Below, piece after piece: positions 32,749-60,879 of a stretch of DNA of 64,000 bases. Each line of letters starts with the position of its first letter. Position 1 is the stretch's first letter. Made by a program: the position numbers and the translations under genes. The DNA comes from Gammaproteobacteria bacterium (GTDB taxonomy: Bacteria; Pseudomonadota; Gammaproteobacteria; Steroidobacterales; Rariloculaceae): the NCBI GenBank assembly GCA_022820625.1, contig JAJEFE010000077.1:20768-84767 (forward strand), given 5' to 3'. Below the pieces are notes generated by a model that had not been told where the DNA came from, did not search any database, and worked only from the letters and a program-made list of their open reading frames with translations.

Positions 32749-32750
32749 CG

Positions 32751-34385
32751 GTGACAGGCCCGCGGCGGTCCGGGGCGACTTTGTCAACGCCCAATTTTCT
32801 GTTCTTCATCACCGACCAGCAGCGCTGGGATCATGTCGGCTATGCCGGCAATGAGATCGTGCAGACCCCGAACATCGATCGTATCGCCACGGGCGGTTCG
32901 TGGCTGTCGCGATTCTACGTATCGTCGCCGACTTGCATGAGCAATCGCGCGACATTCATGACCGGGCGCATTCCACGGGTCAACGGCGTGCGTTACAACG
33001 GGATTCCGCTGGATCTGGATTCCGTCACCTTCGTCGATCTGCTCCTCGCGGCCGGCTATCGCACGGCGCTTGTCGGCAAGAGTCACCTGCAGGGCATGAC
33101 GTCGGAGTCGGCCAAGGTTCCGCGTGAAGTGTACCCGGACGGGCTCAGGCTGCCGCCCGACGCATTGGCCGAGGCGCGTCGGACACCCTACACACGCGAA
33201 GACTATGAGTGGGAGATGAGCCAGGAGTGGGTCCGCCCCGGTCACCCGGACAACATCCGCACGCCGTTCTACGGTTTCGAGGATGTAGCCTTCTGCCTTG
33301 GGCACGGCGACCTGGTCACCGGACACTACTCCGCGTGGCTCAGAAAAAAGGCGCCCGGTCTTGACTTTCAGCCGGGGCTTGCAGGTGCGCGGGCCGTCAG
33401 CGAGGTGCGGGCGGCCCAGGTCTACCAGCCGGCCGTTCCGGAAGATCTCTATCCGACCCGATTTGTCCAGGAGGAGACCGTCGCGTGGCTCGAGGGCCAC
33501 GCCGAGCGCGGAGAGGGCAGGCCCTTCTTCGTGCAATGTTCGTTCCCGGACCCGCACCACCCGTTCACACCGCCGGGCCGTTACTACGGCATGTACGACG
33601 CGGATGAGGTTGAACTTCCACCGTCGTTCCATACACCCACGCGCGATGCAACGCCGCCGCTTGCAAGGCTCTGGGACGAGTACGAGCGCGGTACCGAAAC
33701 GACACGCTGGACGTATCCCTTCGTCACCGGCGAACGGCGGGCGCGCGACATGCTGGCCAAGACCTACGGCCAGATCACGATGATCGACGATGCCGTCGGC
33801 GCGGTACTCGATACGCTGAATCGAGTGGGCCTGGCCGAAAATACCGTGATCTGTTTCCTGTCGGATCACGGCGAGTATCTCGGCGATCACGGCCTGATGC
33901 TCAAGGGGCCGATGCAGTACCAGAGCATCGTGCGCACACCCTTTGCCTGGCGCGATCCGGACCCGGCGTACAACCGCGGGCATCTCGAAGAAATGGGATC
34001 AATGCTGGATCTCGCCCGAACCGTGCTGAGCCGGGCGGGGCTCCAACCGTACAACGGCGTGCAGGGCGTCGATCTCTGCCCGCTGCTCAGGGGCGAGTCG
34101 GCGATGCGCGACGAGGTCCTGGTGGAGTACACCACCCAGTACCCTTACCTCGGGTTCGACGACCTGGTAACGGTCTCGACACTGATTGACCGTCAATGGC
34201 GGATTTCAGTCTGGCAGAACCGTGACTGGGGCGAACTTTATGACCTCTCGAACGACCCCCACGAACTGACGAACCTCTGGGACGATCCGGAGTCGGCAAC
34301 GGTCAAGGAATCGTTGTTGATCCGTCTCGTCCACTCGCTGCAGAACCACGCCGATACCTCGCCGTATCCTCTTTCGGTGTCCTGA
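32751..34385 (+). CDS. sulfatase-family protein (arylsulfatase-like), no signal peptide, variant CMSNR active-site motif
   Basis: Motifs PNFLFFITDQQRWD and SSPTCMSNRATFMTGR. Start uncertain: GTG 32751, TTG 32745 or TTG 32706. Immediately follows the GntR stop. Confidence 0.85.
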   Translation: MTGPRRSGATLSTPNFLFFITDQQRWDHVGYAGNEIVQTPNIDRIATGGSWLSRFYVSSPTCMSNRATFMTGRIPRVNGVRYNGIPLDLDSVTFVDLLLAAGYRTALVGKSHLQGMTSESAKVPREVYPDGLRLPPDALAEARRTPYTREDYEWEMSQEWVRPGHPDNIRTPFYGFEDVAFCLGHGDLVTGHYSAWLRKKAPGLDFQPGLAGARAVSEVRAAQVYQPAVPEDLYPTRFVQEETVAWLEGHAERGEGRPFFVQCSFPDPHHPFTPPGRYYGMYDADEVELPPSFHTPTRDATPPLARLWDEYERGTETTRWTYPFVTGERRARDMLAKTYGQITMIDDAVGAVLDTLNRVGLAENTVICFLSDHGEYLGDHGLMLKGPMQYQSIVRTPFAWRDPDPAYNRGHLEEMGSMLDLARTVLSRAGLQPYNGVQGVDLCPLLRGESAMRDEVLVEYTTQYPYLGFDDLVTVSTLIDRQWRISVWQNRDWGELYDLSNDPHELTNLWDDPESATVKESLLIRLVHSLQNHADTSPYPLSVS

Positions 34386-40239: not shown

Positions 40240-43200
40240 CTACATGTTGCGGCGGTATTCGCCGCCCACGGCATAAAGGGCATGGGAGATCTGGCCAAGT
40301 GAACTGCACCTGACCGTGTCCATGAGTTCCGCGAAGACATTGCCCCGCGCCCGCGCGACCTGCTGAAGGTTTTCCAGCGCCGTGGCCGACCCTTCCGCGT
40401 GCGCGGCCTGGAACGCCCTGACGTTGCGGATCTGTGCCCGCTTTTCTTCCACGGTGGAGCGAATGAGTTCCCTGCCGCGGGACTCGTCCTCCTGTCCGGC
40501 CTCGGGCAGGAAGGTGTTGACGCCGACAATGGGAAACGATCCGTCATGCTTGCGGCTTTCGTAGTAGAGGCTCTCGTCCTGGATCTTGCCGCGTTGGTAC
40601 ATCCTGTCCATGGCGCCGAGCACGCCTCCGCGTTCGGAGATTCGCTCGAATTCCCGGTAGACAGCTTCCTCCACCAGGTCCGTCAGTTCATCGGCGATGA
40701 ACGAACCCTGCAAGGCGTTTTCGCAGTAGTTGAGCCCCAGTTCCCTGGCGATGATCAACTGGATGGCCACGGCACGGCGCACCGAATGCTCGGTGGGCGT
40801 CGTGATGGCTTCGTCGAAGGCGTTGGTGTGCAGGCTGTTGCAGTTGTCGAGGAGCGCGTACAGCGCCTGCAGGGTCGTGCGGATGTCGTTGAAGGAGATT
40901 TCCTGGGCGTGCAGGCTGCGGCCGGACGTCTGGATGTGGTACTTGAGCATCTGGCTGCGGGCGTTGGCGCCGTATCGCTCCCGCATGGCGCGTGCCCAGA
41001 TGCGCCGTGCCACCCGGCCGATGACCGTGTATTCCGGGTCCATGCCATTGGAGAAGAAGAAGCTCAGGTTGGGCGCGAAAGCGTCGATGTCCATGCCGCG
41101 GGCCAGGTAGTACTCGACGATGGTGAAGCCGTTGGCCAGCGTGAAGGCGAGCTGGCTGATGGGATTGGCGCCTGCTTCGGCGATGTGATAGCCGCTGATG
41201 GATACGCTGTAGTAGTTGGCGACGCAATTGTCGATAAAGTACTGCTGCACGTCGCCCATCATCTTCATGGCGAATTCGGTGGAGAAGATGCAGGTGTTCT
41301 GCGCCTGGTCTTCCTTGAGGATGTCTGCCTGGACCGTTCCCCGGACCGATGCCAGCGTGGCCGCGCGTATCTTCTCGTAGGTCTCCGCGGGGACGAGCCG
41401 GTCGCCCGAGATCCCGAGCAGCGCGAGGCCGAGTCCGTCGTTGCCGGAAGGCAACTCGCCCGCATATCGCGGTCGCTCCCGGTCGGCGAACCAGGATTCG
41501 ATCTTTTTCTCCGCCTTTGTCCACGCGCCAGTTTCCCGCAGGTGTTTCTCCACCTGCTGATCGATCGCCGCGTTCATGAAGAACGCCAGGATCATTGGCG
41601 CGGGGCCGTTGATGGTCATGGACACGGAGGTCGCCGAATCGCAGAGGTCGAAACCCGAATACAGCTTCTTCATGTCATCCACGGTGGCGATGGAAACGCC
41701 CGAATTGCCGACCTTGCCGTAGATGTCCGGACGCTCGTGGGGATCCTCTCCATACAGCGTCACAGAATCGAATGCAGTGGAGAGACGCGATGCTTCGTGC
41801 CCGCGGGCCAGGTAGTGGAAGCGCCGGTTGGTCCGCTCCGGCGTCCCCTCGCCGGCAAACATCCGGGTCGGTTCCTCTGCGGCGCGCCGGTAGGGATAGA
41901 CTCCGGCTGTGTAGGGATAGGACCCGGGCAGGTTCTCCTTCATCAGGAACGTGAGCCGGTCGCCCCAGTCCCGCAGGTTCGGAACGGCGATCTTGGGTAT
42001 GTTCAGTCCGCTCAGGGATTGCCGGTAGTTGCTGCCCGTCACTTCCTTGCCGCGCACCCGGTAGCTGTAGTGCTCGTCCCGAGTTGTCTTTCTGCGTTCG
42101 GGCCAGGTTTCGAGCAGGTCGAGGGCTTCTGCGTCGAGTTCGTCGAGGGTCTCCTGGTAACGTCGCCGCAGCGCGGTTATCGAAGGATCCGACCCGCCCG
42201 AGAGCGCGGCCTGTCCAAAGCTGCCGAAAGGCTCCGGCAACTCGGAATCGCCGAGTTCCCGCAGCGCTTCATGGAGGTGCTGCAATCGACTTGCCGCTTT
42301 CGCACGGACCCGGACGGTTTCGTTGATTTCGCGTCCCTGTTCGCTGATTTCGGCGAGGTACCGAATTCGGTTTCCGGGTATGAGCGCCATCGCTCGCGGG
42401 GGGTCGGTGGGTACGTCCAACCCGGGATCCCACTGCGCGGCATCCAGCGAGAGCTTGTCGGCGACACGCCGGCAGAGTTCGATGAACATCCGTGTGAGCC
42501 CGGGATCGCCGAATTGGCTCGCAATGGTCGGGTAGACCGGGATGTCGTCGTCGGCGACATGAAACTGCAGCCGGTTTCTCTTCCACTGTTTGCGTATATC
42601 CCTCAGTGCATCCTCGGCGCTGCGCTGGTCGTACTTGTTGAGCACGACGAGGCCGGCGTAGTCGAGCATGTCGATCTTTTCGAGTTGGCTGGCCGCACCG
42701 TAATCGCCGGTCATGACGTAAAGGGAGAAGTCCACCACATCCACGATCTCGGTGTCGCTCTGACCGATGCCCGCGGTTTCCACCAGCACCAGATCGAATC
42801 CCAGCGACTGCATGAACAGTATCTGGTCGCCCAGCACGCGGCTGGTGGCCAGGTGCTGACGGCGCGTCGCGAGGGAACGCATGAAGACCCTGGGCGAGCG
42901 CAGTGAATTCAGGCGGATGCGGTCGGCCAGCAGCGCTCCGCCGGTGCGCCGGCGCGTCGGATCCACGGCGAGCACGGCCACGCGCATGGCCGGGAAGCAG
43001 GCGAGCAGGCGGTTGAGGATCTCGTCGGTGACGCTGCTCTTGCCTGCACCGCCAGTCCCGGTGATGCCGATCACGGGCACCGCAGCCGAGGCGCCACTCC
43101 AGCGTTTGCGCAGCGCTGCCATTTCGGCTGTGCCGAACAGCCCGCACTCGATGGCGGACATCGTACGTGCGACCGCCACCTCGTCTTCCAGGCCTTCCGC

Positions 43201-43767
43201 GGCCCCTGGCGCGGCCGTAGCAGAGGCCAGGGTCAATTGTGTGCCGGTCCGGGCGTCAGTCTCCGAAACAGGCGAGGCGACCGAAACACGATGGGCCCGG
43301 GTGCGCTCGATCAGGTCGCCGATCATGGCATCAAGCCCCAGGGACATGCCGTCGTTGGGGTGGTAGATGCGTTCCACCCCGTACGCCATGAGTTCGTCGA
43401 TCTCGTCCGGCGTGATCGTTCCCCCGCCGCCGCCGAAGACGCGGATGTGTCCCGCGCCAAACTCCTCGAGCCGGTCGATCATGTAACGGAAGAACTCCAT
43501 GTGGCCGCCCTGATAGGAGCTCACGGCGATGCCGTCGGCGTCCTCCTGGATCGCGGCGCGCACGATCTCGTCCACGCCGCGATTGTGGCCGAGATGGATG
43601 ACCTCGACGCCATGGTTCTGAATCAGCCGCCGCATGATGTTGATCGCCGCGTCATGCCCGTCGAACAGGGAAGCCGCAGTGATGAAGCGAAGCGGCAGGG
43701 TGGTATCGCCCCCCAGGGAATCCGGAAGTTTTCCGGTTGCGGAATCAGGTCTGGGTACCGCGATCAT
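40240..43767 (-). CDS. icmF: fused isobutyryl-CoA mutase (B12-binding domain + MeaB-like GTPase + mutase catalytic domain)
   Basis: 1175 aa. N-terminal B12 domain ([13 protein letters not shown], DxHxxG-type). P-loop [13 protein letters not shown]-terminal methylmalonyl-CoA-mutase-like barrel. Confidence 0.85.
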
Positions 43768-43921: not shown

Positions 43922-46186
43922 TCAGAAAAACCACTGCCCCTGCAAAGCGAGCTGCCGCGGACGCTTGAGCAGGGCGAAATGTGCCTGGTTGCCGGCCAGC
44001 GGGTTTGACGCATTCCACTCCTTCACGAATACGTTGCTGAGGTTGCGTCCCACCAGCGCGACGCGCCACCGACCGTCTCCGCCTCCCACGCCGATACGTC
44101 CGTCCAGCATCGCATAGGAATCCTGGTACGTGTTCGGATCCGCATTGGAGTTGATGACGTATTCGGTGGTAAAGAACACGTCCGCGCGCCAGAAGAATTC
44201 CAGGTTGTTCTGCAGCGGGCGGTTGTAGTTCAGGCCGATCGTGCCGGAGATGTCGGGGGCGAATTGCAGCGGCGTGCCCGACTGGTCCTGGATGCGGTTG
44301 ATGCAGCCCTCTGCCTCTGTTTGAAACGGGTAGCAGGCCCCGGTAGTAAACACGTCGAAATTGGCGTCCAGCAGACTCAGGTAGGCGCTGACGGTGAGAT
44401 TCTCGGTTGCGGCCCAGTCGAAGTCCGCCTCCAGGCCCTGGGATAGCGCCGACCCGGCGTTCTGGGTGACGAACGTAAGTGCGTCGGCATCGAACGTCGC
44501 GACCTGCAGGTTGTCGATTTCGCTGCGAAACAGCGCCAGGTTGAGCCGCGCCGCGCCGTCGGCCAGCGTGCTCTTGGCGCCCAGTTCGTAAGCGACGACG
44601 TTTTCGGCATCGATCGGGCGGTCGAGCGCCGGAACGCCCGGCTGGTGGTTGTTGGCCCCGGCCTTGAAGCCTTTCTTGTAGCTGGCGTACAGCATCCTGT
44701 CGTCATCGGGAAACCATTCGGCCGTGATGGATGGCTGGAAGGCCGATTCGGTGTATTGCTGGTTGCGAGTGAACGTCATGCCCGCATTCTGGGGATTGTC
44801 CATCCACGGCCGTGTGGCAACGACCATGACCCGCCAGTCCTGCGCGTATACGTTGACCTTGTCGACCTCGGTATAACGTCCCGCCAGCTTCAGGTTGACG
44901 GAATCCCCGGCCTGAAACTCGACCTCGCCGAACGCCGCCCAGGAGTCGCCGTCCTCGTCGTTGTCCCTGATGACGAGCATCGCCATGGGGCCATTCGGGA
45001 ATATCGAGTTCCGGGTAAAGTTGATGTTGTTGTTCGAATCCATGTACACGCCGGCGAGCCAGTTCAGGGGTCCGTCGGCATTCGACGTGAAGCGCAATTC
45101 CTGACTGAACTGGTCGTATTCCTCGACGAAGTTCGCGACACCGAAGTCGGTTTCGCTGTGGGACGGATCCGCGAAAAACATGTTGGTGAAGTCGTAGTAG
45201 CCAGTGATCGAATTCACCGTGAAGGCATCGAGATCCCAGTCGATGCCGAGCATCGTCGAGGTCATCTCGAAATCGTAGAAGTTGTTGTCGCCCGCGGTGA
45301 CGAACAGTTCGCCCACGCGGATGAAGAAATTGTCCGGATGATTCGCCGGGTCGGCCCAGCTCGACCGGGTTTCGTTGAAGATGCAGTCTTCGAGATTCCG
45401 GTCGATCACCGCCTCCCATGCCGGCGAGCAGTTGACGGTCTGGGTGTTGCGGCCCTCCCAGAAGACGTTCATGGTTTCGAGCTTTGCATACACTTCCACG
45501 TTGTCGGCAGGGTTCCAGACGGCGCTGATCCGCGCCAGTTCGTCTTCCTGGGTCGGTTCCTTGCGGCCGTTGGCCATGTTGTTGACCCAGCCGTCCAGGC
45601 GGCGGACCTTGGCGGCGGCGCGGACGCCGAAGGTGTCGCTGAGGGGGCCACCGGCGGCGGCCGTGAGAACGGTTTCGTCGTGTTCGAATTCCCGATAGAG
45701 ATCGATGTAGCCTTCGAACTCATTGCCGGGGCGGCGGGAAGTGACATTGATGGCGCCGGCCGTTGCGTTCTTGCCGAGATACGTCGGCTGCGGACCCTTG
45801 AGTACTTCGAGCCGTTCGACGTCCAGGTAGGCGATGCGCGTGCCGCGCGCACGGCCCCAGTAAACGCCGTCGATGTAGAACGGCGCCGAATTCTCGAAAC
45901 CGAAGTTGCCGCTGGACTGGCCGACCCCGCGGATGAAGGCGTTGTCGTTCATGCCGCCCTGGGCAATGTTGACCCCGGGAATGTTCATGTCGTAGAAGTT
46001 GCTGATGGAGTAGTCCGTCAACAGGACGCCATCCACCGTGTTGATCGCCAGCGGGACCTCCTGCAGGGATTCCTCCCGCTTGGTCGCCGTGACGACGATT
46101 TCCTCAAGTTGCTGGCCCGCGGCGGGCAGCGCGAACACGCCGCAACCCGCGGCCAATATCAGTAAACGCGTGCATCGTGAATGCAT
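43922..46186 (-). CDS. TonB-dependent receptor
   Basis: ATG at 46186 preceded by GGGGAGAAG. Signal peptide LLILAAGCGVFALPAAGQ. Plug EEIVVTATKREESLQEVPLAIN. C-terminal ...LQGQWFF. Confidence 0.9.
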   Translation of the reverse strand: MHSRCTRLLILAAGCGVFALPAAGQQLEEIVVTATKREESLQEVPLAINTVDGVLLTDYSISNFYDMNIPGVNIAQGGMNDNAFIRGVGQSSGNFGFENSAPFYIDGVYWGRARGTRIAYLDVERLEVLKGPQPTYLGKNATAGAINVTSRRPGNEFEGYIDLYREFEHDETVLTAAAGGPLSDTFGVRAAAKVRRLDGWVNNMANGRKEPTQEDELARISAVWNPADNVEVYAKLETMNVFWEGRNTQTVNCSPAWEAVIDRNLEDCIFNETRSSWADPANHPDNFFIRVGELFVTAGDNNFYDFEMTSTMLGIDWDLDAFTVNSITGYYDFTNMFFADPSHSETDFGVANFVEEYDQFSQELRFTSNADGPLNWLAGVYMDSNNNINFTRNSIFPNGPMAMLVIRDNDEDGDSWAAFGEVEFQAGDSVNLKLAGRYTEVDKVNVYAQDWRVMVVATRPWMDNPQNAGMTFTRNQQYTESAFQPSITAEWFPDDDRMLYASYKKGFKAGANNHQPGVPALDRPIDAENVVAYELGAKSTLADGAARLNLALFRSEIDNLQVATFDADALTFVTQNAGSALSQGLEADFDWAATENLTVSAYLSLLDANFDVFTTGACYPFQTEAEGCINRIQDQSGTPLQFAPDISGTIGLNYNRPLQNNLEFFWRADVFFTTEYVINSNADPNTYQDSYAMLDGRIGVGGGDGRWRVALVGRNLSNVFVKEWNASNPLAGNQAHFALLKRPRQLALQGQWFF

Positions 46187-46268
46187 GACTTCTCCCCTGG
46201 ATTTGCGGCGGCAATTCTCTCGTACAGTGTTGGAACAAGGCAACAGAGGCTCTTGGTGAAGAAAAAAC

Positions 46269-46454: not shown

Positions 46455-48167
46455 CTAATGCGCTGCAGGCAAGTCCGGCCGGTGATAGACGTCCGGGCTC
46501 CTGAATCCGCCGTAGAGTTCCCAGTGGTTCAAATCGAAGTAGGGGACAGCCTCCATCCGGAACACCACGTCGTCACCGTCGTATTCGACGACGCGTCCGC
46601 CATAGGGGAGGTCTCCGGTTGAACGGCGGGTCTCGTCCATGCTGTCCTGCGTGATGTTCTCCAGTTGCGGCAGGCAGAAGGCGAAGATGACGAGGTAGTT
46701 GTCGGTGACCGGCAAGCGCCAGGCGTCGCTCATGGCGTTGGCGAAGCAGGCGTCCTCGTGGACGCTGTCGCCCGAGGTCCACACTTGTCGAACGGTCATG
46801 TTCTCTTCGTCCACTTCGTATTCGACGCCGCGGCTGAAGTTCTCCGGCAGCGGCAGGCGCGGCTCGAAGGGCATGGCGCCGCCGTGGGCGCGGTTGTCGA
46901 ACAGGATCACCGTGCCGGCGTGGGTCATGCGCGGGTTGTGCTGATAGCCGGGCCACAACAGGTCGCCGACCGGCGTGAGCAGTTTGTCCTGGAGGTTCTC
47001 CGGCCAGCCGTCGTGGCGTCCGAGAATCCACTTGATGTCGCGGGTCTGGTAATCCACCTTGACGATGGCATTCTGGTTTCGCAGCGATACCAGGACCGAG
47101 TCGTCCGAGGAGTCGTAGCTCAGTCCGTTGGCGTGGGTCCAGTCCATGTAGTCGGGGAAGCCGCGCACCCACCAGTAACTCCAGAAGGTGTCGTAGCCCA
47201 CCCGGAAGGGGTCCAGGGTGCCGTAGGTGTCCCAGGTCCAGACGGTTTCACCCTCGGGCGTGAACTGCACGACGGTATCGGCCATGACGATCTGGTCGGT
47301 ACGCGGTGCGTTCGGGTCGCTGTCGCTGCTGTAGTAGTCCTCGATGAGGTACCCGTTGGCGGAGAAGGCCAGGAAATCGCCGTTGGGCATCTCGTGGGGC
47401 TGGTGATGCAGGGTCTGCTGGCCGAGAATGGGAATGGCATCGGGATTCTCGGGCGGGGGGAAGGGCCTTTCCTCGGCGTAGAACTGCCGTACGACGTTGC
47501 CCAGCAGGTCGATTTCCACGGTGGAGAAGTCCGTGCGGTGCATGAGTATGTTGCCGTTGGAGAGGCGGGCGATTCCTGCCGTCCTGAAGTCCGAGTTGTA
47601 GTACCAGATGACGTCGCCGCGCGCATCGAGCGCCAGCAGCATGCCCCAATCCTCGGAAAAATCCCGCTGCCTTTCGGTCAGCCAGTGGGCGCGCCCCAGG
47701 GCCCGCCGGCGCACGCTCAGGAAGGTCACTCCGGGTTCCATGCGCTCGGGGATCGAGATCTGGATGTCCAGATCGGGGAATTCCAGCGGGTTGGCGGGCA
47801 GGTCCGGCGTGATATGGGGCCAGGTTTCCGTGTGTTGTTCGCCGTCTGCCCCGGTGATCGCGAGCGTAATCGTGTGTTCGCGCCCCGGCCGCATGCCTGC
47901 GACCGGCAACAAGTAGCGTCCATCCCGGGCGATCCCGGCGTCGAATTCCGCCTCCCAGCTGTTCGCGCCGTCGCTGATGGACAGCCGGGATTCCGCCGCC
48001 TGATCGAGACTGAACCCGATCGCCGCCGCAAGGGGCACGCGGCCGGTCGGGTTGGCGGTGAGCGTGGGCGCTTCCACGAAGCTCAGTTGCGCCCATCCGG
48101 TGCCCAGGGGCAACGCAAACAGCGCGGCCGTCGTGATGATCCGAAGCCATGATTGTCTGATGTCCAT
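46455..48167 (-). CDS. secreted aryl-sulfate sulfotransferase (ASST)-like beta-propeller protein
   Basis: 570 aa. Signal peptide ITTAALFALPLGTGWAQ. Motifs LHHQPHEMPNGD, DWTHANG and YQHNPR. Confidence 0.8.
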   Translation of the reverse strand: MDIRQSWLRIITTAALFALPLGTGWAQLSFVEAPTLTANPTGRVPLAAAIGFSLDQAAESRLSISDGANSWEAEFDAGIARDGRYLLPVAGMRPGREHTITLAITGADGEQHTETWPHITPDLPANPLEFPDLDIQISIPERMEPGVTFLSVRRRALGRAHWLTERQRDFSEDWGMLLALDARGDVIWYYNSDFRTAGIARLSNGNILMHRTDFSTVEIDLLGNVVRQFYAEERPFPPPENPDAIPILGQQTLHHQPHEMPNGDFLAFSANGYLIEDYYSSDSDPNAPRTDQIVMADTVVQFTPEGETVWTWDTYGTLDPFRVGYDTFWSYWWVRGFPDYMDWTHANGLSYDSSDDSVLVSLRNQNAIVKVDYQTRDIKWILGRHDGWPENLQDKLLTPVGDLLWPGYQHNPRMTHAGTVILFDNRAHGGAMPFEPRLPLPENFSRGVEYEVDEENMTVRQVWTSGDSVHEDACFANAMSDAWRLPVTDNYLVIFAFCLPQLENITQDSMDETRRSTGDLPYGGRVVEYDGDDVVFRMEAVPYFDLNHWELYGGFRSPDVYHRPDLPAAH

Positions 48168-52958: not shown

Positions 52959-53933
52959 ATGACGACGCGAAGCCAGTCCATGAGACGTGAGGAGTACATC
53001 GATCTCTACCGGACCATGGTCCGGATCCGCGTTTTCGAGGAGACCGTGCGCCGCTACCATATCGCCGGCAAGGCGCCCGGCCTGGTACACCTGTGCACGG
53101 GGCAGGAGGCAGTGCCAGCCGGTTTCATTTCCGTGCTCAGGCCGGACGACTTCATCACCATCTACCATCGCGGCCACGGTCATTGCATCGCCAAGGGATC
53201 TTCGCTGGAGGCGCTTCTGGGCGAGCTGTTGCATCGCCGGGGTGGGGTGAACCTGGGGCGGGCGGGCGAACCGCACCTGTGCGATCCTGCCACCAACAAC
53301 ATCGGTTCCACCGGAATTGTCGGCGGCAGCGTGCCCCTGGCAGCCGGGGCGGCGCTGGCTGCCCAGCTTCGCGGCACTGACCAGGTGTCGGTGAGCTTCT
53401 TCGGTGACGGCGTGCTCAACCAGGGCGTGATGTTCGAGGTGCTGAACATGGCGGCCATCTGGTCCCTGCCGGTGGTCTTCGTCTGCGAGGACAACCGCTA
53501 CGGCGAGTTCACCGAAAGCGCGACGGTGACGGCAGGGGAACGCTACCAGGATCGCGGCGCCGTCTTCGGAATTCCCTCGGATACCCTGGACGGAATGGAT
53601 GTGCTGGCGGTTTGCGAGGCCGCCGAGTCGGCGGTGGGCCGGGCACGGCGCGGCGAGGGACCGAGTTTTCTGGTATTCGAAACCTACCGGTTCACCGGCC
53701 ATCACGTGAGCGACCAGCAGGAATACAAGGACAGCGAGGAGATTCGCGCCTGGAAAGCACGCGACCCGATCCCGAACTACGCCCGCTGGCTTGCGGAGAA
53801 AGGCCACATGGATGACGCGGCCATCGCCCGCATACACTCCGAAATCGACGACGAAGTGGAGGCGGCCGCCAAGGTCGCCGATTCGATGCCTCACCCCGGA
53901 CCCGAGGATCTCGGGACACATGTGTTTGCCTAG
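52959..53933 (+). CDS. TPP-dependent 2-oxoacid/acetoin dehydrogenase E1 alpha subunit (pair 1)
   Basis: 324 aa. Motifs YHRGHGHCIAKG and FFGDGVLNQG...FVCEDNRYG. Confidence 0.9.
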   Translation: MTTRSQSMRREEYIDLYRTMVRIRVFEETVRRYHIAGKAPGLVHLCTGQEAVPAGFISVLRPDDFITIYHRGHGHCIAKGSSLEALLGELLHRRGGVNLGRAGEPHLCDPATNNIGSTGIVGGSVPLAAGAALAAQLRGTDQVSVSFFGDGVLNQGVMFEVLNMAAIWSLPVVFVCEDNRYGEFTESATVTAGERYQDRGAVFGIPSDTLDGMDVLAVCEAAESAVGRARRGEGPSFLVFETYRFTGHHVSDQQEYKDSEEIRAWKARDPIPNYARWLAEKGHMDDAAIARIHSEIDDEVEAAAKVADSMPHPGPEDLGTHVFA

Positions 53934-53956
53934 GCGGCAGCCCATGCCCGTGCGCC

Positions 53957-54943
53957 ATGCAGCAGACTGAGCGGCAGATCAGCCTGAAAGCGGCGGTCAT
54001 CGAGGCCATCGCCGAGGAATTCAGGCGCGACCCCGAGACGTTCTACATCGGCGAGGACGTGGGCGTGGCCGAGGGCATCTTCAAGCAGACCCAGGGATTG
54101 CACGCAGAATTCGGCGACAGGCGCGTGATCGATACGCCCATTTCGGAAGCCGGAATGTTCGGCCTGACGGTGGGGGCTGCGGTCGCCGGCATGCGGCCCA
54201 TCGTGGAGATCATGTTCAGCGATTTCCTGACGCTGGTGATGGATCAACTGGTCAACCACGCCGCCAAGATTCATTACCTTTCAGGCGGGGGGTTCAGGGT
54301 ACCGCTGGTGCTGCGGACCGCCATCGGCGTGGGAGGCGTTCTTGGCTCCACCCACTCGCAGACTCTGTACGCCTGGCCGGCGCATGTCCCCGGCCTCAAG
54401 CTCGCGGCCCCGTCCACGCCTGCGGACGCCAAGGGCCTGATGACGGCGGCAATCCGCGACGATAACCCGGTCCTGTACTTTGAGGACCGCATGACCTACA
54501 ACCTCAAGGGGCCGGTGCCGGAGGGCGAGCACATTGTCGAACTGGGTGTGGCCGACATCAAGCGCAAGGGCAGCGACGTGACGCTGATCGCGTTTTCCCG
54601 CATGGTGCACGTGGCGCTGGAGGCGGCGGACGCGCTTGCCGCGAAGGGCATCAGCGCGGAGGTGGTGGATCCGCGATCCATCGTCCCTCTGGATACCGAA
54701 ACGCTGATTGATTCGGTGGCCAGGACCGGCCGCGCCGTGGTGATCGACGGCGGACACGAGCTCTACGGTATCGGCGCCGAGGTTGCCGCGACCGTTGCCG
54801 AGGGCGCCTTCGACTACCTCGATGCACCGGTGATGCGGATCGGCGCACCCCACAACCCGGTACCGTGCAGCAAGCCGCTGGAAGCGATGATGGTGCCGAG
54901 TGCCGATCAGGTCGTGGCGAAGGTCGAACGGATGTACGGATGA
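53957..54943 (+). CDS. E1 beta subunit (pair 1)
   Basis: 328 aa. Motifs FYIGEDVG and RVIDTPISEAGMFGLTVGAA. Confidence 0.9.
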   Translation: MQQTERQISLKAAVIEAIAEEFRRDPETFYIGEDVGVAEGIFKQTQGLHAEFGDRRVIDTPISEAGMFGLTVGAAVAGMRPIVEIMFSDFLTLVMDQLVNHAAKIHYLSGGGFRVPLVLRTAIGVGGVLGSTHSQTLYAWPAHVPGLKLAAPSTPADAKGLMTAAIRDDNPVLYFEDRMTYNLKGPVPEGEHIVELGVADIKRKGSDVTLIAFSRMVHVALEAADALAAKGISAEVVDPRSIVPLDTETLIDSVARTGRAVVIDGGHELYGIGAEVAATVAEGAFDYLDAPVMRIGAPHNPVPCSKPLEAMMVPSADQVVAKVERMYG

Positions 54944-55020
54944 GAACGAATGCGTGAAACGACTCGAGGCGGACAGGCGCGCAGGCGGACATATGCCGGC
55001 CGCTACGGAACCATTGACCA

Positions 55021-56037
55021 ATGATTGACAGCGTACAGGCACTGGCCATTTTCGAATCGATGCTGCTGATCCGCCGCTTTGAAGAGACGGTAATCGATCT
55101 CTGGGCGACCGTGGAAACCGAAAGCCACCGCCACGTCTACATCGGCCAGGAGGCGGTGGGCGCGACAATCATGGAACTGCTGCGCGAAGACGACCTGATC
55201 CTGACCACCCACCGCAACCATGGCCACGTGCTCGCCCGAGGCGCCGATCCCGGCCGCGCACTGGCCGAGATCCTCGGTCGGGCGAACGGCTTCAACAAGG
55301 GGCGCGGCGGCAGCGCCGGGCTGACGGTTCGCGAGGCGGGATTCCTGGCCACCACGGGCCAGGTGGGCGGCGGCATCGGTCTGGGCATCGGCGCCGCGCA
55401 GGCCCAGAAGATCAGGGGCAGGGGCGGGATCTGCGTGACCTTCTTCGGCGACGGCGGGCTGGAAGAAGGGATCGGCTTCGAGGCCATGAACATCGCCGCG
55501 CTGTATCGCCTGCCGGTGCTGCTGGTATGCGAGAACAACAGCGTCGGAGTCACCACGGGCCGCGCCCAGAACGAATGGTCGTCGTCCTCCATGGCGGCCG
55601 AGACCCTGGGGGACATCCCCCGAGCGCTGGGAATCGCCACGGAAGTGGTTGCCGGGGAAAGCGTGACCGACGTCCACGAGGCAGCGAGCCGGCTGATCGG
55701 CGATCTGCGCGAGGGCAGGGCGCCCGCCTTCATCGAGATGCGTACCCGGCGCTGGCCCGGGTCCCGCAGCTTCAACCCGCAACTGGTGACCGGTGTGACC
55801 AATCTCGACGATATCTGGGAGCCTGTTTCGGTGACTGGCGAATATTCCGACTGGATCAATCGGTACGATCCGGTCATCGGCTATGGCAGAGATCTGTTCC
55901 GTCAAGGCCGGGTGAGTCGCAGCGAGATCGTCGCCATGAACGAGCGAGTCGGCCGAACCGTAGAGGCGGCCCGTGAGTTTGCGCTCGCCAGTCCGCTGCC
56001 GTCGGCCGAAAGCGGACTCGCGGGTACGTTCGCATGA
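55021..56037 (+). CDS. TPP-dependent E1 alpha subunit (pair 2)
   Basis: 338 aa. Motifs THRNHGHVLARG and FFGDGGLEEG...LVCENNSVG. Confidence 0.85.
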   Translation: MIDSVQALAIFESMLLIRRFEETVIDLWATVETESHRHVYIGQEAVGATIMELLREDDLILTTHRNHGHVLARGADPGRALAEILGRANGFNKGRGGSAGLTVREAGFLATTGQVGGGIGLGIGAAQAQKIRGRGGICVTFFGDGGLEEGIGFEAMNIAALYRLPVLLVCENNSVGVTTGRAQNEWSSSSMAAETLGDIPRALGIATEVVAGESVTDVHEAASRLIGDLREGRAPAFIEMRTRRWPGSRSFNPQLVTGVTNLDDIWEPVSVTGEYSDWINRYDPVIGYGRDLFRQGRVSRSEIVAMNERVGRTVEAAREFALASPLPSAESGLAGTFA

Positions 56038-56056
56038 TGGCCGGGGGAGATTCGCG

Positions 56057-57034
56057 ATGGCGAGGATGACGTTTGCCGCGGCCATGGTGGACGCCGTCGT
56101 GGCGCGGATGCACGACGATCCGACCATGACGCTGATCGGCAGCGCTTACCTGCTGGGACCTACGGCAGAGCATCCGGAGTTGAACGCGGTACGGGAGCGC
56201 TACGCGGATCGGATCATCGACGAACCGCCCATCGCGGAGTCCGCCGTAGCGGGGCTTGCCATCGGTTCGGCCATGAGCGGTTGCCGCGCGCTGGCACACT
56301 TCGGTCTTGCGGCATTCGCCGTCGAGGCCTGGTCACAGTTCATTCACGAGGCGGGCGTGGCGCATCATCAGTCCGGCGGACAGATCACCGTCCCCGCCGT
56401 CTTCGTCATGATGCACGGCATCATGCCCATCGAGCACTCCCAGCACAGCCGCAGTCCCTACGCCATGCTGGCCAACTGTCCGGGGATCCAGATCGTGCTG
56501 GCGTCCACACCCGCCGATATCAAGGGCCTGATGACGACCGCGCTGAGAAGCGATAATCCCACTGTGGTCATGAACCACCCGTTACTGATGGCAATGGAAG
56601 GCGAAGTCCCGGACGGTGATTTCTCCATCCCGTTCGGCCAGGCGGAGGTCAGGCGGGCGGGCGACGATGTCACCATAGTGGCTACGTCGCACAAGGTGCA
56701 CGTAGCGCTGGAGGCGGCCGAGAGGCTGGCTGCCGATGGCGTTTCTGCCGAGGTCGTCGACCCGCGCACCATCGTGCCCCTGGACCGCGCTGCCATCCTG
56801 GCGTCGGTATGCAAGACCGGCCGTGTGGTGGTGGTGGACGACAGCCCTCGCACGTGCGGATTCGGCGCCGAGATCGGGGCGTTGGTCGCGGAGTCCGCCT
56901 TCGACGATCTCAAGGCGGCGGTCGTGCGGCTGTCGCCTCCGGACACCCCCATACCGAGAGGTACCGTCGCCCAGACGCCGTTCCGGACAACGCCGGAGAA
57001 GGTGGTGGGCGCCGTGCGCTCCGTTCTTTGGTGA
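56057..57034 (+). CDS. E1 beta subunit (pair 2)
   Basis: ATG at 56057 after GGGGGAGA; the track ORF starts at 55973. Motif RIIDEPPIAESAVAGLAIGSA. Confidence 0.85.
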   Translation: MARMTFAAAMVDAVVARMHDDPTMTLIGSAYLLGPTAEHPELNAVRERYADRIIDEPPIAESAVAGLAIGSAMSGCRALAHFGLAAFAVEAWSQFIHEAGVAHHQSGGQITVPAVFVMMHGIMPIEHSQHSRSPYAMLANCPGIQIVLASTPADIKGLMTTALRSDNPTVVMNHPLLMAMEGEVPDGDFSIPFGQAEVRRAGDDVTIVATSHKVHVALEAAERLAADGVSAEVVDPRTIVPLDRAAILASVCKTGRVVVVDDSPRTCGFGAEIGALVAESAFDDLKAAVVRLSPPDTPIPRGTVAQTPFRTTPEKVVGAVRSVLW

Positions 57035-57091
57035 GAGGCCCGCAATTGGATACCCTCCGTGAGATATTCGCAATGAGAGGTCCGCAATTCC

Positions 57092-58423
57092 ATGACCCGT
57101 GAAATCCTGATGCCGGCGCTGACGCCAACCATGGAGGAGGGAACACTGGCCCGCTGGCACGTGCGTCCCGGCGACTCGGTTGAGGCGGGCCAGGTGATCG
57201 CCGAGATCGAGACGGACAAGTCCGTGCTGGAACTGGAGGCGTTGGAGGATGGCGAGATCGGCGAGTTGATGGTGGAGGAGGGCGCCGAGGGCGTGCCCGT
57301 GGACCGGGTCATCGCCACCTTACTGGAGGCACACGAGTCATCTGACTCCGAGGAGGCCGACCCGGCACCGCCCGCCGAACTCGCAGACGAAGCCGTTGCA
57401 TCCGGCATCGGGCGCCCCGAGTCCGGTTCGTCGTCGAAACCGCGGTCGCAGGGGGCGGCGTCGACGCCCGTCATACCATCGTCGGGAGGGCGGCGGAACC
57501 GCGTACCCGCGAGTCCGGCGGCCCGGCGTCTTGCACGCGAGCGCGGCATCGATATTGCCGCGCTGATGGGCACAGGCCCGCGCGGCCGGATCGTCGCCGC
57601 CGATGTCGAAGCTGCATTGCCGGCGCTGTCTTCCGACGACGGATCGACGGCAGTTGCTGCCACCGGAACGCCGCCGGCCGAGTTGGAAATACCGTTTGAA
57701 GAAAGGCCGCTCTCCACCCTGGGCAAGACCATGGCACGGCGGATGGCCGAGTCCAAGGCGACCATTCCCCACTTTCATTGCAGTATCGACGTCTGTGTTG
57801 ATGCTGCATTGAGCCTGCGGGCTGAACTCAACGCATCCGGGGATGGTCCCAAATTGTCACTGAACGACCTGGTGGTGCACGCCGTGGCCCGGGCTCTGCA
57901 GGATACGCCCCGGATGAATGTCCAATACCGGGATGACCGCCTGATCCGGTTCCGGCGCGTGGATATCGCGGTTGCCGTCGCCCTGGACGAGGGTCTGGTG
58001 ACGCCGGTGTTGCGTGGTGCGGAGACATTGCCGCTGCCCAAACTGGCCTCGCGGATGCGGGACCTGAACGAGCGGGCGCGTGCAAGACAACTGGACGTCG
58101 AAGACTACCGGGGCGGTACTTTCACCGTATCCAACGTAGGAATGTTTGGCATCCGCCAGAGCTGGCCGATCATCAATCCGCCGCATGCGGGCACACTCGG
58201 CGTCGGCGCGGCCGTGCCCCGGCCGGTGGCGATCGCCGGCGACGATGGCACGCGTGTCGACGTTGCTACCATGATGAGCCTGACCCTGGCCGCCGATCAC
58301 CGCGCCGTGGACGGTGTGATTTCCGGCCAGTTTCTCCGCCGCCTGAAGGAAGCGCTCGAGCATCCCGAAGCGCTACCCGACTCGGGGGAACGTGCTCAAT
58401 CGCCGAACACGAGCGACGGGTAG
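57092..58423 (+). CDS. dihydrolipoamide acyltransferase (E2)
   Basis: 443 aa. Lipoyl domain (AEIETDKSV), Ala/Pro/Ser linker, E3/E1-binding domain (ASPAARRLARERGIDI) and catalytic domain with DHRAVDG. Confidence 0.9.
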   Translation: MTREILMPALTPTMEEGTLARWHVRPGDSVEAGQVIAEIETDKSVLELEALEDGEIGELMVEEGAEGVPVDRVIATLLEAHESSDSEEADPAPPAELADEAVASGIGRPESGSSSKPRSQGAASTPVIPSSGGRRNRVPASPAARRLARERGIDIAALMGTGPRGRIVAADVEAALPALSSDDGSTAVAATGTPPAELEIPFEERPLSTLGKTMARRMAESKATIPHFHCSIDVCVDAALSLRAELNASGDGPKLSLNDLVVHAVARALQDTPRMNVQYRDDRLIRFRRVDIAVAVALDEGLVTPVLRGAETLPLPKLASRMRDLNERARARQLDVEDYRGGTFTVSNVGMFGIRQSWPIINPPHAGTLGVGAAVPRPVAIAGDDGTRVDVATMMSLTLAADHRAVDGVISGQFLRRLKEALEHPEALPDSGERAQSPNTSDG

Positions 58424-58941
58424 CCTTTCTCCGCGACCAGTGCGGCCGCCTTGCGCATGGGATCGCGGGTGTGGTGGCGGCCGGCGCCATGACCCTCCAC
58501 GAGGCGGTTGACCATATTGAAATGCGCGCAGACGCAGATGGCGTCCGACAGCGCCTTTTCGCTCCAGCCGGCCGCGAACACGGCATCGGCGTCCTCCTGG
58601 GTCATGGCCGAGGGTGTGTACGTGAGTTTCTCCACGTAGCGCAACAGGGCCTTGAAACTCTCCTCAACAGGTGCGGTGTCCAGGTTCGCCAACGCCTGGT
58701 CGATCAGTGAATCGTCTGCTCCGGATGCTGCCGCGACCGCGGCATGCCCATGGAATCAGTGCGGGCAGTCGTTCAGGCCGGACACGTACGAGCCGATGAA
58801 CTCCCGCTGCGCCGGAGTCAGCTCGGATGGATCGCGCAGGATGCGCTGGGACTGCTTCGGAAGCCCCCGCAACCGGTCGGCGCGGGCGCGAACGATGTCG
58901 GGCTGGCCGGCGTCTTCATGCAGGAATTTTACGAATGGCAT
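58396..58941 (-). CDS. candidate selenoprotein: AhpD/carboxymuconolactone-decarboxylase-family peroxidase-related protein (C-P-H-U); in-frame TGA at 58756..58758
   Basis: Track ORFs 58756..58941 and 58396..58692 are in the same frame (58941-58692=249). Read-through gives ...FIGSYVSGLNDCPH-[TGA]-FHGHAAVAAA..., the AhpD-type CxxC with the second Cys replaced by TGA. The combined length of 181 aa is typical of the family. Confidence 0.7.
58730..58743 (-). promoter_or_regulatory. candidate bacterial SECIS hairpin downstream of TGA 58756..58758
   Basis: On the minus strand the sequence is UGA + 12 nt + GCCGC-GGUC-GCGGC: a 5-bp GC stem with a GGUC apical loop. The loop and spacing resemble the E. 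coli fdhF SECIS as I remember it. Confidence 0.45.
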
Positions 58942-59063
58942 CGCTCGGAACTCCTCTTGGTTGAACAGTATGTAACGAGACTCTTGAGATCAACGCTAAA
59001 AGTACATTACTTTCAATATGTTAGGTATAAGCCCTCAAACAGGCAGTTGTGATCTCATCAAAA

Positions 59064-59074
59064 CTGTACTACAT
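59064..59074. promoter_or_regulatory. candidate GntR/FadR-type operator CTGTACTACAT
   Basis: The core TGTACTACA is a perfect palindrome. It lies 51 nt upstream of the ASST ATG at 59125. Confidence 0.45.
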
Positions 59075-59124
59075 TTCCTGCATTAAGGACAGGCGTGCCG
59101 GGAAAATGTGAACGAGGGGTATCG

Positions 59125-60879
59125 ATGGAACGCAGGCGCAGTGTGATTTGGGAATTCGGTTGGCTGTTTCTCTTTCCCTGGCTGGTAGCATCGCCCGGCG
59201 AACTGGTGGCTCAGGGCGTCGCCGAGGGACTTTCCTTTACGTCGCCGCCACGGATGGAGCAAAACCCCAATCCCGCCGTGCCGCTTGCGGCCGTGCTGTC
59301 CTTCGAGTCTCGCGACGCCGTCGCCACTCGGGTGGATTTCGACGACGGTGAGCGAACCTGGAGCATCGATTTCGACCGCGTTCCCGTTGGAGGGGAGATC
59401 CTGCCCATCCTGGGGATGCGGCCGGGTCGCCGGCACGAGATCCGCGTCACTATCTTTGACAGTGCGGAAGGCTCGAAGCAGTGGGACGGTGAACTCGGAT
59501 ACACGACGCCGCCATTGCCGGTGGACCGTTACCTCATGCCGGACTACGACGTCCGCGTGGCGCAGCCGGAACGCATGGAGCCCGGGGTGACCATCCTGAG
59601 CGTGCGCCGGTCGCTGCTGTTGCGGCCCCAGGATCGCAATCCCGCGCAACAGGCCTTCGTCACCCGCTACGGACTGCTGCTGGCGCTGGACAACGAGGGA
59701 GAGGTGGTCTGGTACTACCGGTCCGATGACCGGATCGCGGGCATCGACCGGCTCGCCAACGGCAACATCATCTTCCACATGGCATCGTTCGAGGCCGTGG
59801 AGATGGACATGCTCGGCAACCGGCTGCGAAGCTGGTATGCCGAGGAACGTCCGCGCGGTCCGTCCACCGCCCCCGGCGCGGTCCCCATACGGGGCGCGCA
59901 GACCCTGCACCATCAGCCCCACGAGGTCCGCGACGGCTCCTTCCTGTCGTTCTCGGCGAACTGGCGGGTGATCGAGAACTGGTACACCAACGAATTCGAT
60001 CCTACCCCGAGACGAGAACAGAAGGTGATGGGCGACACCATCCTGGAGTTCGACAAGGCCGGCAACATTCTCTGGAGCTGGAACGCCTTCGACTACCTCG
60101 ACACCGGTATGATCGGCTACGAAGCCTTCAACCCCTACTGGGTCACCCGCGGCTTCCCCGACACCTGGGACTGGAGTCACGGCAACGGCGTCGCCTACGA
60201 TCCGCGTGACGACTCCGTGGTGGCGAGCTTCAAGCTGCTGGACGCGATCATCAAGATCGACCGCGAAAGCAAGGAGATCAAGTGGATCTTCGGCGATCAC
60301 GTCGGCTGGGAGGGGGCGCTGCGGGAGAAACTGCTGACTCCGGTCGGCGAGGATTTTCGCTGGCCCTGGCACCAGCACAATCCGCGCTGGACCCACGCCG
60401 GCACGCTGATGGTGTTCAACAACAACCGCGGCCAGGCCAAGCCCTTCGACGGTCGGCCGCACGCCCCGTTCGAGGACACGCACAGCTATTCGGTGGAGTA
60501 CGAAATCGACGAGGCCGAAGGGACGGTGCGCCAGGTCTGGATTGCCGAGCCCGAACTGACCGGGGACGCCTGCAACAGCATGGCCATGAGCGATGCGCAT
60601 CGACTGCCGCTCACCGACAACATCCTCGAGATCAATGCGCTGTGCATACCGGCCGGCACCTCGGGCGTCACCTGGGACATCTGGGACCGTTCCCAGCGGT
60701 ATCTTGCAGAAGTGCCACACGGCGGCCGAGTGCGGGAATTTACGCGAACCGACCCCGCCGAAGTCGTTTTCGACGTTTCCTTCAGGGATCCCCACGACGC
60801 GCTGGCATGGCAGGTGTACGGCGGGTTCCGCACGCCGAGCCTTTACCCGGATGAGGGCGCAGGCGGGACGGACCGGTAG
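59125..60879 (+). CDS. secreted aryl-sulfate sulfotransferase (ASST)-like beta-propeller protein
   Basis: ATG at 59125 after GAGGGG. Signal peptide WEFGWLFLFPWLVASPGELVAQ. Motifs LHHQPHEVRDGS, DWSHGNG and HQHNPR. Confidence 0.8.
   Translation: MERRRSVIWEFGWLFLFPWLVASPGELVAQGVAEGLSFTSPPRMEQNPNPAVPLAAVLSFESRDAVATRVDFDDGERTWSIDFDRVPVGGEILPILGMRPGRRHEIRVTIFDSAEGSKQWDGELGYTTPPLPVDRYLMPDYDVRVAQPERMEPGVTILSVRRSLLLRPQDRNPAQQAFVTRYGLLLALDNEGEVVWYYRSDDRIAGIDRLANGNIIFHMASFEAVEMDMLGNRLRSWYAEERPRGPSTAPGAVPIRGAQTLHHQPHEVRDGSFLSFSANWRVIENWYTNEFDPTPRREQKVMGDTILEFDKAGNILWSWNAFDYLDTGMIGYEAFNPYWVTRGFPDTWDWSHGNGVAYDPRDDSVVASFKLLDAIIKIDRESKEIKWIFGDHVGWEGALREKLLTPVGEDFRWPWHQHNPRWTHAGTLMVFNNNRGQAKPFDGRPHAPFEDTHSYSVEYEIDEAEGTVRQVWIAEPELTGDACNSMAMSDAHRLPLTDNILEINALCIPAGTSGVTWDIWDRSQRYLAEVPHGGRVREFTRTDPAEVVFDVSFRDPHDALAWQVYGGFRTPSLYPDEGAGGTDR

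Follow-up and report, generated by a model that had tools for sequence, protein, structure and literature searches.

Does an in-frame TGA in a bacterial redox gene end the protein, or does it encode selenocysteine (Sec)? This question is raised by a 64,000-nucleotide stretch of gammaproteobacterial DNA (contig JAJEFE010000077.1 of assembly GCA_022820625.1, positions 20,768 to 84,767), which is called the window here. On its minus strand two open reading frames (ORFs) of 61 and 98 amino acid residues (58756..58941 and 58396..58692) lie in the same frame, upstream and downstream of a TGA. Judged from the sequences, the two ORFs very probably form one gene of 181 codons for an AhpD-like protein, and its UGA codon 62 would be read as Sec.

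Direct translation of the minus strand gave a frame that starts with the ATG at 58941, passes through the in-frame TGA at 58758..58756 and ends with a TGA stop at 58398..58396, which makes 181 codons and the stop. The original prediction had claimed two ORFs in one frame with the junction ...SYVSGLNDCPH-TGA-FHGHAAVAAASG... and a combined product of 181 residues, a normal length for the family. Both claims were borne out, the first by the translation and the second by the codon count and by the homologues, most of which have about 184 residues. The joined product begins with MPFVKFL, and an amino-terminal MPF.KFL is common to it and the full-length homologues.

A search of 5.8 billion proteins yielded 78 homologues, most of them with 42-51% identity, a query coverage of 84-98% and E-values down to 4e-44. 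Both halves of the joined product were collinear with one Cys protein, P0003. Residues 1-59 matched its residues 1-59 (E=1e-15) and residues 64-153 matched its residues 63-152 (E=5e-36), and the TGA falls opposite Cys62 of P0003, within the motif C-Q-F-C. Position 62 is occupied by Cys in 39 of the 78 homologues, the closest ones included, and by Val, Ala, Ile, Ser or Gly in 35 (Val 23, Ala 7, Ile 3), with a gap in the remaining 4. The TGA had been proposed to replace the second Cys of a CxxC motif, and the alignment to these Cys-containing AhpD-like proteins indeed places it opposite that Cys and not outside the motif. The residues E47, C59 and H66 are nearly invariant, each being present in 73-75 of the 78 homologues, and a large subgroup of the family keeps only the first Cys of the CxxC. 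The Sec clade, which reads C-[PA]-H-U, is set apart by its His61; Tyr or Phe is found at this position in 73 of the 78 relatives.

The joined product was scored against domain profiles with a Cys put in place of Sec at codon 62. It passed the Pfam model CMD (PF02627) with 26 bits against a cut-off of 23, and the AhpD core model TIGR00778 with 29.7 bits against a cut-off of 27.8. Among the 1,269 relatives detectable with clustering at 50% identity, the Sec clade was a single cluster, and the short proteins in this search might be further Sec-truncated forms. A scan of metagenome contigs found only two Cys forms, both distant (37% identity). The locus of one Cys form (L013 769..1908) carries a tandem pair of paralogous CMD/AhpD-like genes, one with the motif S-Q-Y-C, in which the first Cys is lost, and the other with C-Q-F-C.

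Four short matches in the first homologue search (P0040, P0053, P0062 and P0077) hinted at truncated gene calls. In the contigs of three of them, that of P0077 being left out, a 61-codon ORF runs into a TGA and the remaining ORF continues in frame; the junctions read C-A-H-TGA or C-P-H-TGA. A search with the 61-residue amino-terminal piece returned three clusters of 61-residue 'proteins', and a scan of GTDB genomes gave three contigs of metagenome-assembled genomes (MAGs) with 93-98% identical genes, among them 'Gammaproteobacteria bacterium jk18x25bins.5'. The TGA is kept at the same codon in all 19 contigs. They come from different samples (JGI, Logan, TARA, ENA and GTDB MAGs) and fall into lineage A (the window, L005-L007, L015-L022), lineage B (L001, L002, L025) and lineage C (L003, L004, L010-L012), with about 62% amino acid identity between lineages. 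The ratio of nonsynonymous to synonymous substitution rates (dN/dS, Nei-Gojobori) was 0.01-0.21 upstream and downstream of the TGA alike, and the synonymous sites were saturated between the three lineages. By these ratios purifying selection acts on the gene on either side of the TGA. One 98% identical copy, on the 1,578-bp contig L005 (CAZCZB010000180.1), has been binned into an 'uncultured Dehalococcoidia' MAG. It is probably a binning contaminant, because the long contigs that bear the AhpD-like gene are gammaproteobacterial.

A bacterial Sec insertion sequence (SECIS) is predicted directly behind the UGA. A hairpin GCCGC-GGUC-GCGGC had been proposed 12 nt downstream of the TGA, and it was confirmed at 58743..58730; the sequence GCCGCGGTCGCGGC begins 12 nt past the TGA and has its sole exact copy in the window there. 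The published model of the bacterial SECIS asks for a loop of 3-9 nt, a stem of 4-16 bp, G at the first two loop positions, a UGA-to-loop spacing of 16-37 nt and a minimum free energy (MFE) of at most -7.5 kcal/mol (PMC13188914). The predicted element lies within all these limits, with a GGUC loop of 4 nt, a stem of 5-6 bp with 2 bp below the bulge, a spacing of 17 nt and -18.1 kcal/mol. The likeness to the SECIS of Escherichia coli fdhF, which had been suggested for the GGUC loop, is fair. The fdhF reference sequence used for folding, which matches fdhF in 5,419 E. coli genomes at 100%, has its GGUC loop at nt 22-25 from the U of the UGA, compared with nt 21-24 in the window. In both folds a short stem carries the apical loop, a bulged base lies below the stem and the UGA is drawn into the lower helix. 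They differ in the upper stem, which has about four mixed pairs in fdhF and 5-6 G-C-rich pairs here, and in the bulged base, which we take to be a U in fdhF and which is A or C in the clade of the window.

The core hairpin is invariant in 18 of the 19 contigs, at equal distance from the TGA. The exception is L011, which has a 1-nt deletion in the hairpin (GCCGCGGTCGCG-CGC; L011 6446..6500), further frameshifts downstream and an assembly coverage of 0.46x; the deletion is most likely an assembly error and not a natural variant. The upper hairpin recurs in the MFE folds of all TGA-containing orthologues. Its codons GCC GCG GUC GCG encode Ala-Ala-Val-Ala, and the conservation of their third bases was tested with the 49 fourfold-degenerate codons that have the same amino acid in the window, L001 and L003. 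All three lineages share the third base at only 6 of these 49 sites. Four of the six are the hairpin codons, and elsewhere in the gene the count is 2 of 45 (hypergeometric P ~7e-5 by our own arithmetic on the counts). The Cys homologue L013 has the same HAAVAA peptide with other codons and no such hairpin, and the hairpin is likewise not present in three further Cys forms. At the pair that flanks the stem (nt 15-30), lineage A has U-A, lineage C has C-G and lineage B has C.U. In lineage B the bulge is shifted, so that the bulged base is C15 in place of the A14 of the window, and A14-U30, C13-G31 and U12-A32 pair instead.

The window also encodes an Ndh-SelD fusion. It scored 275.9 bits with TIGR00476 selD (cut-off 125) and 484 bits with TIGR03169 (cut-off 310). 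The Pfam domains are Pyr_redox_2, AIRS and AIRS_C, and the active site reads C-G-G-C-G-A-K. The protein stays below the cut-off of TIGR04369 'fusion_not_SelD'. Ndh-SelD fusions with a CxxC motif are reported to be typical of marine bacteria (PMC2398784). The genes selA, selB and tRNA-Sec were found in lineage B. On the 63-kb contig L025 a selA gene (TIGR00474, 573.7 bits, cut-off 267.9), a selB gene (TIGR00475, 389.8 bits, cut-off 242.25), a gene for tRNA-Sec and a sulfatase gene are followed on the same strand by the TGA-containing orthologue, which begins 21 nt past the sulfatase gene and has the same UGA and hairpin as the window gene. The tRNA-Sec was detected by ARAGORN on L025 and by Rfam RF01852 (73.3 bits, gathering score 47) on the near-identical L001. 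The co-directional block of selA, selB, tRNA-Sec, the sulfatase (772 residues) and the AhpD-like gene spans L025 995..7587 on the plus strand and is also seen at L001 152..3381; the 3' end of selB and the tRNA share about 45 nt. This block could be a Sec-machinery-linked operon.

A second gene with an in-frame TGA, Prx-like, adjoins the Ndh-SelD gene. Its TGA falls opposite the Ser/Thr in the TxxC motif of peroxiredoxins (PDB 2cx3), and the gene fits 'Prx-like 1, UxxC', a known selenoprotein pattern (PMC2398784). In a relative with an 89% identical SelD the gene is split again, into in-frame ORFs of 83 and 265 residues (L026 8811..9881). The second gene lends added support to the Sec reading. 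Both it and selD had been placed about 54 kb from the AhpD-like gene, and their coordinates agree with this.

Several results weigh against a Sec codon. The best NCBIfam match of the joined product, TIGR01926 'peroxidase-related enzyme', fell just short of its cut-off of 81.8 bits with 80.6 bits, even with Cys62. Other members of the Sec clade scored 80.4 and 86.6 bits and Cys relatives 67-100 bits, and the Sec clade sits at the edge of this model. Some 44% of the relatives carry Val, Ala or Ile at the second position of the CxxC, and therefore Sec62 could be the attacking or the resolving residue. Covariation in the hairpin is thin: one pair flanking the stem has changed at both of its positions and the five core pairs are constant, so that formal covariation support is weak. 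The stability of the fold is unexceptional for a G+C-rich sequence (z = -1.5, with 19 of 200 shuffles folding equally well), and the z values across the tested sequences, -0.4 to -1.7, were not significant against shuffles. Because of this weak covariation and unexceptional stability, the function of the hairpin rests on conservation and not on energetics. Rfam gave no SECIS or other credible match, neither with the whole window at the gathering threshold nor with 58300..59100 at E<=10. The 64-kb window contains no tRNA whatsoever, and no selA or selB was seen among its larger ORFs with Pfam. The 10-kb flanks of the close relatives have no selA, selB or tRNA-Sec, and in the relative with the 89% identical SelD, whose contig measures 1.68 Mb, sel genes are absent within 10 kb. 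In addition, selD alone may serve selenouridine or Se-cofactor traits. The expected Sec machinery was thus recovered in part, as selD in the window and as selA, selB and tRNA-Sec directly upstream of the L025 orthologue; for want of these three genes in the window and the relatives' flanks, Sec decoding in the genome of the window rests on selD and conservation.

The missing genes, together with the other selenium traits open to selD, speak for a relic or conditional stop. Lineage A would then be without SelA, SelB and tRNA-Sec, the 61-residue fragment would be made and the remainder would be decaying. We consider this quite unlikely, because in lineage A the part past the TGA has a dN/dS of 0.15-0.21 and is frameshift-free across about 12 independent assemblies. 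The hairpin has also stayed invariant, the same genomes retain another redox gene that a TGA interrupts, and the lineage-B orthologue stands beside selA, selB and tRNA-Sec.

A read-through of the UGA by other means, either by a near-cognate tRNA for Trp or Cys or by reassignment of UGA to sense, would preserve both ORF halves as well. In the window, however, TGA is the commonest true stop and terminates 13 of the 25 Pfam-supported genes, the AhpD-like gene among them, which excludes a general reassignment. The codon is aligned specifically with the redox Cys and is followed by a conserved stem-loop at SECIS distance, and the orthologue is linked to Sec machinery. Non-Sec read-through is therefore very unlikely.

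Automatic callers annotate two hypothetical ORFs, of 61 and 78-126 residues, in every public contig examined. Two separate small genes, one for a 61-residue protein and one for a 98-119-residue protein with its own start, are nevertheless scarcely credible. The homologues of about 184 residues, full-length Cys forms included, are single ORFs spanning both parts, and amino acid conservation crosses the TGA and continues through codons 63-83, ahead of the TTG at 58692. The called start varies by lineage between an ATG straight past the TGA, a later GTG and the TTG, and sequence inspection found no Shine-Dalgarno-like motif ahead of the TTG comparable to that of the ATG (Table 1). Two genes would also split the active-site motif C-x-x-U-x3-H between their products. 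An independent 98-residue gene, which would have spoken against the original prediction, is excluded by these observations, and the Sec reading restores a complete redox enzyme.

A mistake in sequencing or assembly, or a nonsense mutation acquired recently, could in principle explain an observation in a single window, and L011 does have an indel here. The TGA is shared, however, by 19 contigs, which stem from many samples and three lineages. Together with the low dN/dS on both sides and the saturated synonymous sites this rules out an error, a pseudogene or two unrelated genes, and the first two are effectively refuted.

The fold was predicted with AlphaFold2. The alignment-based model had a predicted local distance difference test score (pLDDT) of 95.4 and a predicted template modelling score (pTM) of 0.91, and it matched the AhpD-core 'peroxidase-related' structures 3c1l, 2pfx, 6k40, 2prr and 2oyo with TM-scores of 0.69-0.74. 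The same five entries, which include the Deinococcus radiodurans AhpD (6k40) and Mesorhizobium loti Mlr4105 (3c1l), were the best PDB sequence matches (E=2.5e-16 to 4e-6 over about 150 residues), and the CxxCxxxH motif aligns with 6k40, 3c1l and 2oyo. Unlike the predicted product they are all Cys proteins; their identity to it is 20-29%, and most have no established physiological substrate. The model also showed a weak structural match to the marine CMD-fold debrominase Bmp8 (PDB 6ohj/6ohi; TM 0.67-0.68, E=0.025-0.04, 13-14% identity).

The active site resembles that of the Mycobacterium tuberculosis AhpD, where a proton relay is formed by E118, C130, H132, C133 and H137 (PMC3141380). The window protein has the same relay residues, E47, C59, H61, U62 and H66, with the same spacing E-x11-C-x-H-U-x3-H, and the predicted Sec62 occupies the position of Cys133. 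In the mycobacterial protein the exposed Cys133 attacks AhpC, and re-reduction proceeds via a lipoyl-bearing E2 (SucB/DlaT) and Lpd (PMC6626918). The two proteins differ in several respects. Foldseek matched the model to 1knc, 1gu9 and 1lw1 with E-values of only about 0.7-1.1, a TM-score of about 0.5 and a root-mean-square deviation of about 8 A. The motif lies in the carboxy-terminal half of the M. tuberculosis AhpD, whereas it is in the amino-terminal half of the window protein. In the window family the first Cys is invariant and not the second, through which the M. tuberculosis AhpD attacks AhpC. Finally, the window gene has no adjacent ahpC and the neighbouring gene cluster no E3 gene.

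Table 1. Features of the window discussed in the text
Feature	Coordinates	Strand	Basis
AhpD-like (CMD-fold) selenoprotein gene, predicted	58396..58941	-	translation, domain profiles, full-length homologues, AlphaFold2 model
In-frame UGA, predicted Sec62, second position of the C59-P-H-U62 redox motif	58756..58758	-	homologue alignment, TGA conservation
Proton-relay and active-site codons: E47 58803..58801, C59 58767..58765, H61 58761..58759, U62, H66 58746..58744	58744..58803	-	spacing, homologue alignment
Predicted bacterial SECIS: lower helix including UGA, internal loop, 2 bp, bulged A, 6-bp upper stem	58717..58758	-	identical MFE and centroid folds, -18.1 kcal/mol, 45 nt
SECIS core GCCGC-GGUC-GCGGC (GCCGCGGTCGCGGC): five G-C pairs, apical GGUC loop (nt 21-24, counting from the U of UGA)	58730..58743	-	folding, conservation
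Shine-Dalgarno-like AAGAGGAG, 9 nt before ATG 58941	58951..58958	-	sequence inspection
Ndh-SelD fusion: N-terminal pyridine-nucleotide-disulfide oxidoreductase domain and selenophosphate synthetase	1088..3343	-	TIGR00476, TIGR03169, Pfam
Second in-frame-TGA gene, Prx-like: signal peptide, AhpC-TSA, DsbD_N, motif W-U-P-Y-C	3463..4533, TGA 4284..4282	-	Pfam, alignment
Convergent lipoyl-bearing E2 acyltransferase, overlaps the AhpD-like gene by 28 nt	57092..58423	+	Pfam Biotin_lipoyl, E3_binding, 2-oxoacid_dh

At its 3' end the AhpD-like gene meets a convergent gene for a lipoyl-bearing E2 acyltransferase, and the 28-nt overlap that had been reported agrees with the coordinates. The E2 gene is adjacent in most of the lineage-A contigs that were displayed, even with a different upstream neighbour (L021), and in lineage C E1 and lipoyl genes are located some 7 kb away from the orthologue. 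In the window, genes for an alcohol dehydrogenase, a short-chain dehydrogenase/reductase and an aldehyde dehydrogenase come before a plus-strand cluster (52959..58423) of two tandem E1-alpha/E1-beta pairs and, last, the single lipoyl-E2. No E3 (Lpd) gene was found in this cluster. As listed, the ORF of the second E1-beta shares 65 nt with E1-alpha, and its true start is probably later. The neighbours of the Cys homologue at L024 are an AhpC-TSA gene and a gene for a flavoprotein disulfide reductase. In the window no ahpC is adjacent, and the sole peroxiredoxin-like gene seen lies 54 kb off.

In lineages B and C the AhpD-like gene directly follows a sulfatase gene with a gap of 9-21 nt, and in lineage A it is divergent from an arylsulfotransferase gene. 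The intergenic region between these two divergent genes (58942..59094) is A+T-rich, with about 38% G+C compared with 63% in the window. A promoter scan of the region upstream of the AhpD-like gene revealed no sigma-70 consensus promoter, and a single terminator-like match was rejected, as it lay inside coding sequence on the opposite strand and was at chance level. The window is rich in arylsulfotransferase genes (PF05935), with five copies at 11195..12817, 12830..14716, 21594..23189, 46455..48167 and 59095..60879, one of them with EF-hand motifs. It also contains one sulfatase gene and two genes for TonB-dependent receptors (32706..34385, 35939..38911 and 43922..46243). Sulfatase and arylsulfotransferase genes surround the lineage-B and lineage-C orthologues as well. 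A minus-strand gene at 40240..43767 encodes an IcmF-like fusion of 1,175 residues with B12-binding, MeaB GTPase and methylmalonyl-CoA-mutase parts, and it adjoins an acyl-CoA dehydrogenase gene.

How might the gene be expressed and what might its product do? By analogy to E. coli fdhF, the mRNA 3' of the UGA would fold into the G-C stem with a bulge below and the GGUC apical loop 17 nt past the UGA. SelB, the Sec-specific elongation factor, would bind this stem-loop and bring Sec-tRNA(Sec) to the ribosome, and the selenophosphate would be supplied by the Ndh-SelD fusion encoded in the window. The product would be an all-helical CMD-fold oxidoreductase of 181 residues with a C59-P-H61-U62...H66 centre and E47. 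It most likely would cycle between the selenol/thiol and the selenenylsulfide state and hand on reducing equivalents to an oxidised partner, of the peroxiredoxin type or another. The neighbouring lipoyl-E2 is a possible reductant, as in the mycobacterial AhpD-DlaT-Lpd system. An AhpD-type selenol/thiol redox relay, possibly fed by the lipoyl-E2, is favoured because of the motif spacing, which is like that of the M. tuberculosis AhpD, and the gene context with E2, E1 and AhpC-TSA. The redox chemistry and the reductant are what we infer from motif and neighbourhood, and the insertion of Sec in the organism of the window and the binding by SelB are likewise inferences.

The C-x-H-U clade could alternatively be a selenol redox enzyme dedicated to catabolic islands rich in sulfatases and arylsulfotransferases and not an adaptor in peroxide defence. 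The protein would then act either as a reductase driven by the lipoyl-E2 or, in the manner of Bmp8 and the deiodinases, as a reductive dehalogenase on halogenated or sulfated aromatics. Thiol- or selenol-dependent dehalogenation is a known chemistry of Sec, as in the deiodinases. This proposal leans on the sulfatase gene 9-21 nt upstream in two lineages, in one of which it follows selA, selB and tRNA-Sec, and on the weak match to Bmp8, and it seems unlikely to us.

AhpD-like selenoproteins with a CxxU motif have been reported from the Sargasso Sea with 27 sequences (PMC1088965). In the Global Ocean Sampling data they are among the most abundant selenoprotein families, with 299 sequences of 'AhpD-like 1' (COG2128) and 70 of 'AhpD-like 2' (PF02627) (PMC2398784). 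A review from 2026 lists 'AhpD-like protein, TIGR01926, CxxU' as a selenoprotein family, with MCB9421940.1 as an example (PMC13188914). The family has thus been known from marine bacteria since 2005, and the window gene is a previously unannotated member. Compared by their descriptions, the published proteins and the window protein are alike in the fold family, in a CxxU with Sec as the second residue, in widespread Cys homologues and in a SECIS straight after the UGA. They also have a marine or host-associated habitat in common, and the window encodes the Ndh-SelD fusion that organisms of this kind typically have. The window protein differs from the TIGR01926-type selenoproteins in that it lies 1.2 bits under the cut-off of the model. 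Other AhpD/CMD selenoprotein models belong to the same superfamily and have a CxxU-type redox motif. The scores with these models were far below the cut-offs (NF041238 AhpD_rel_CFYUT, 45.9 against 175; NF041047 GSU3128 family, 21.1 against 110; NF053654 YciW-related, 17.9 against 310), and the window protein is a member of none of the three.

The AhpD-like gene does not alter the current understanding of Sec decoding. It makes modest additions to a known family, namely the clade-specific C-x-H-U motif and the conserved lipoyl-E2, sulfatase and arylsulfotransferase neighbours, and the Sec reading would mark these gammaproteobacterial MAGs as Sec users. Its predicted SECIS is a clean example of a bacterial element that is frozen at synonymous sites across lineages of about 62% identity, and it would be useful for training predictors of SECIS elements and selenoproteins. 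The physical link between the Sec machinery, the sulfatase and the AhpD-like gene, together with the adjacency of the lipoyl-E2, offers a testable lead on the function of this abundant marine family.

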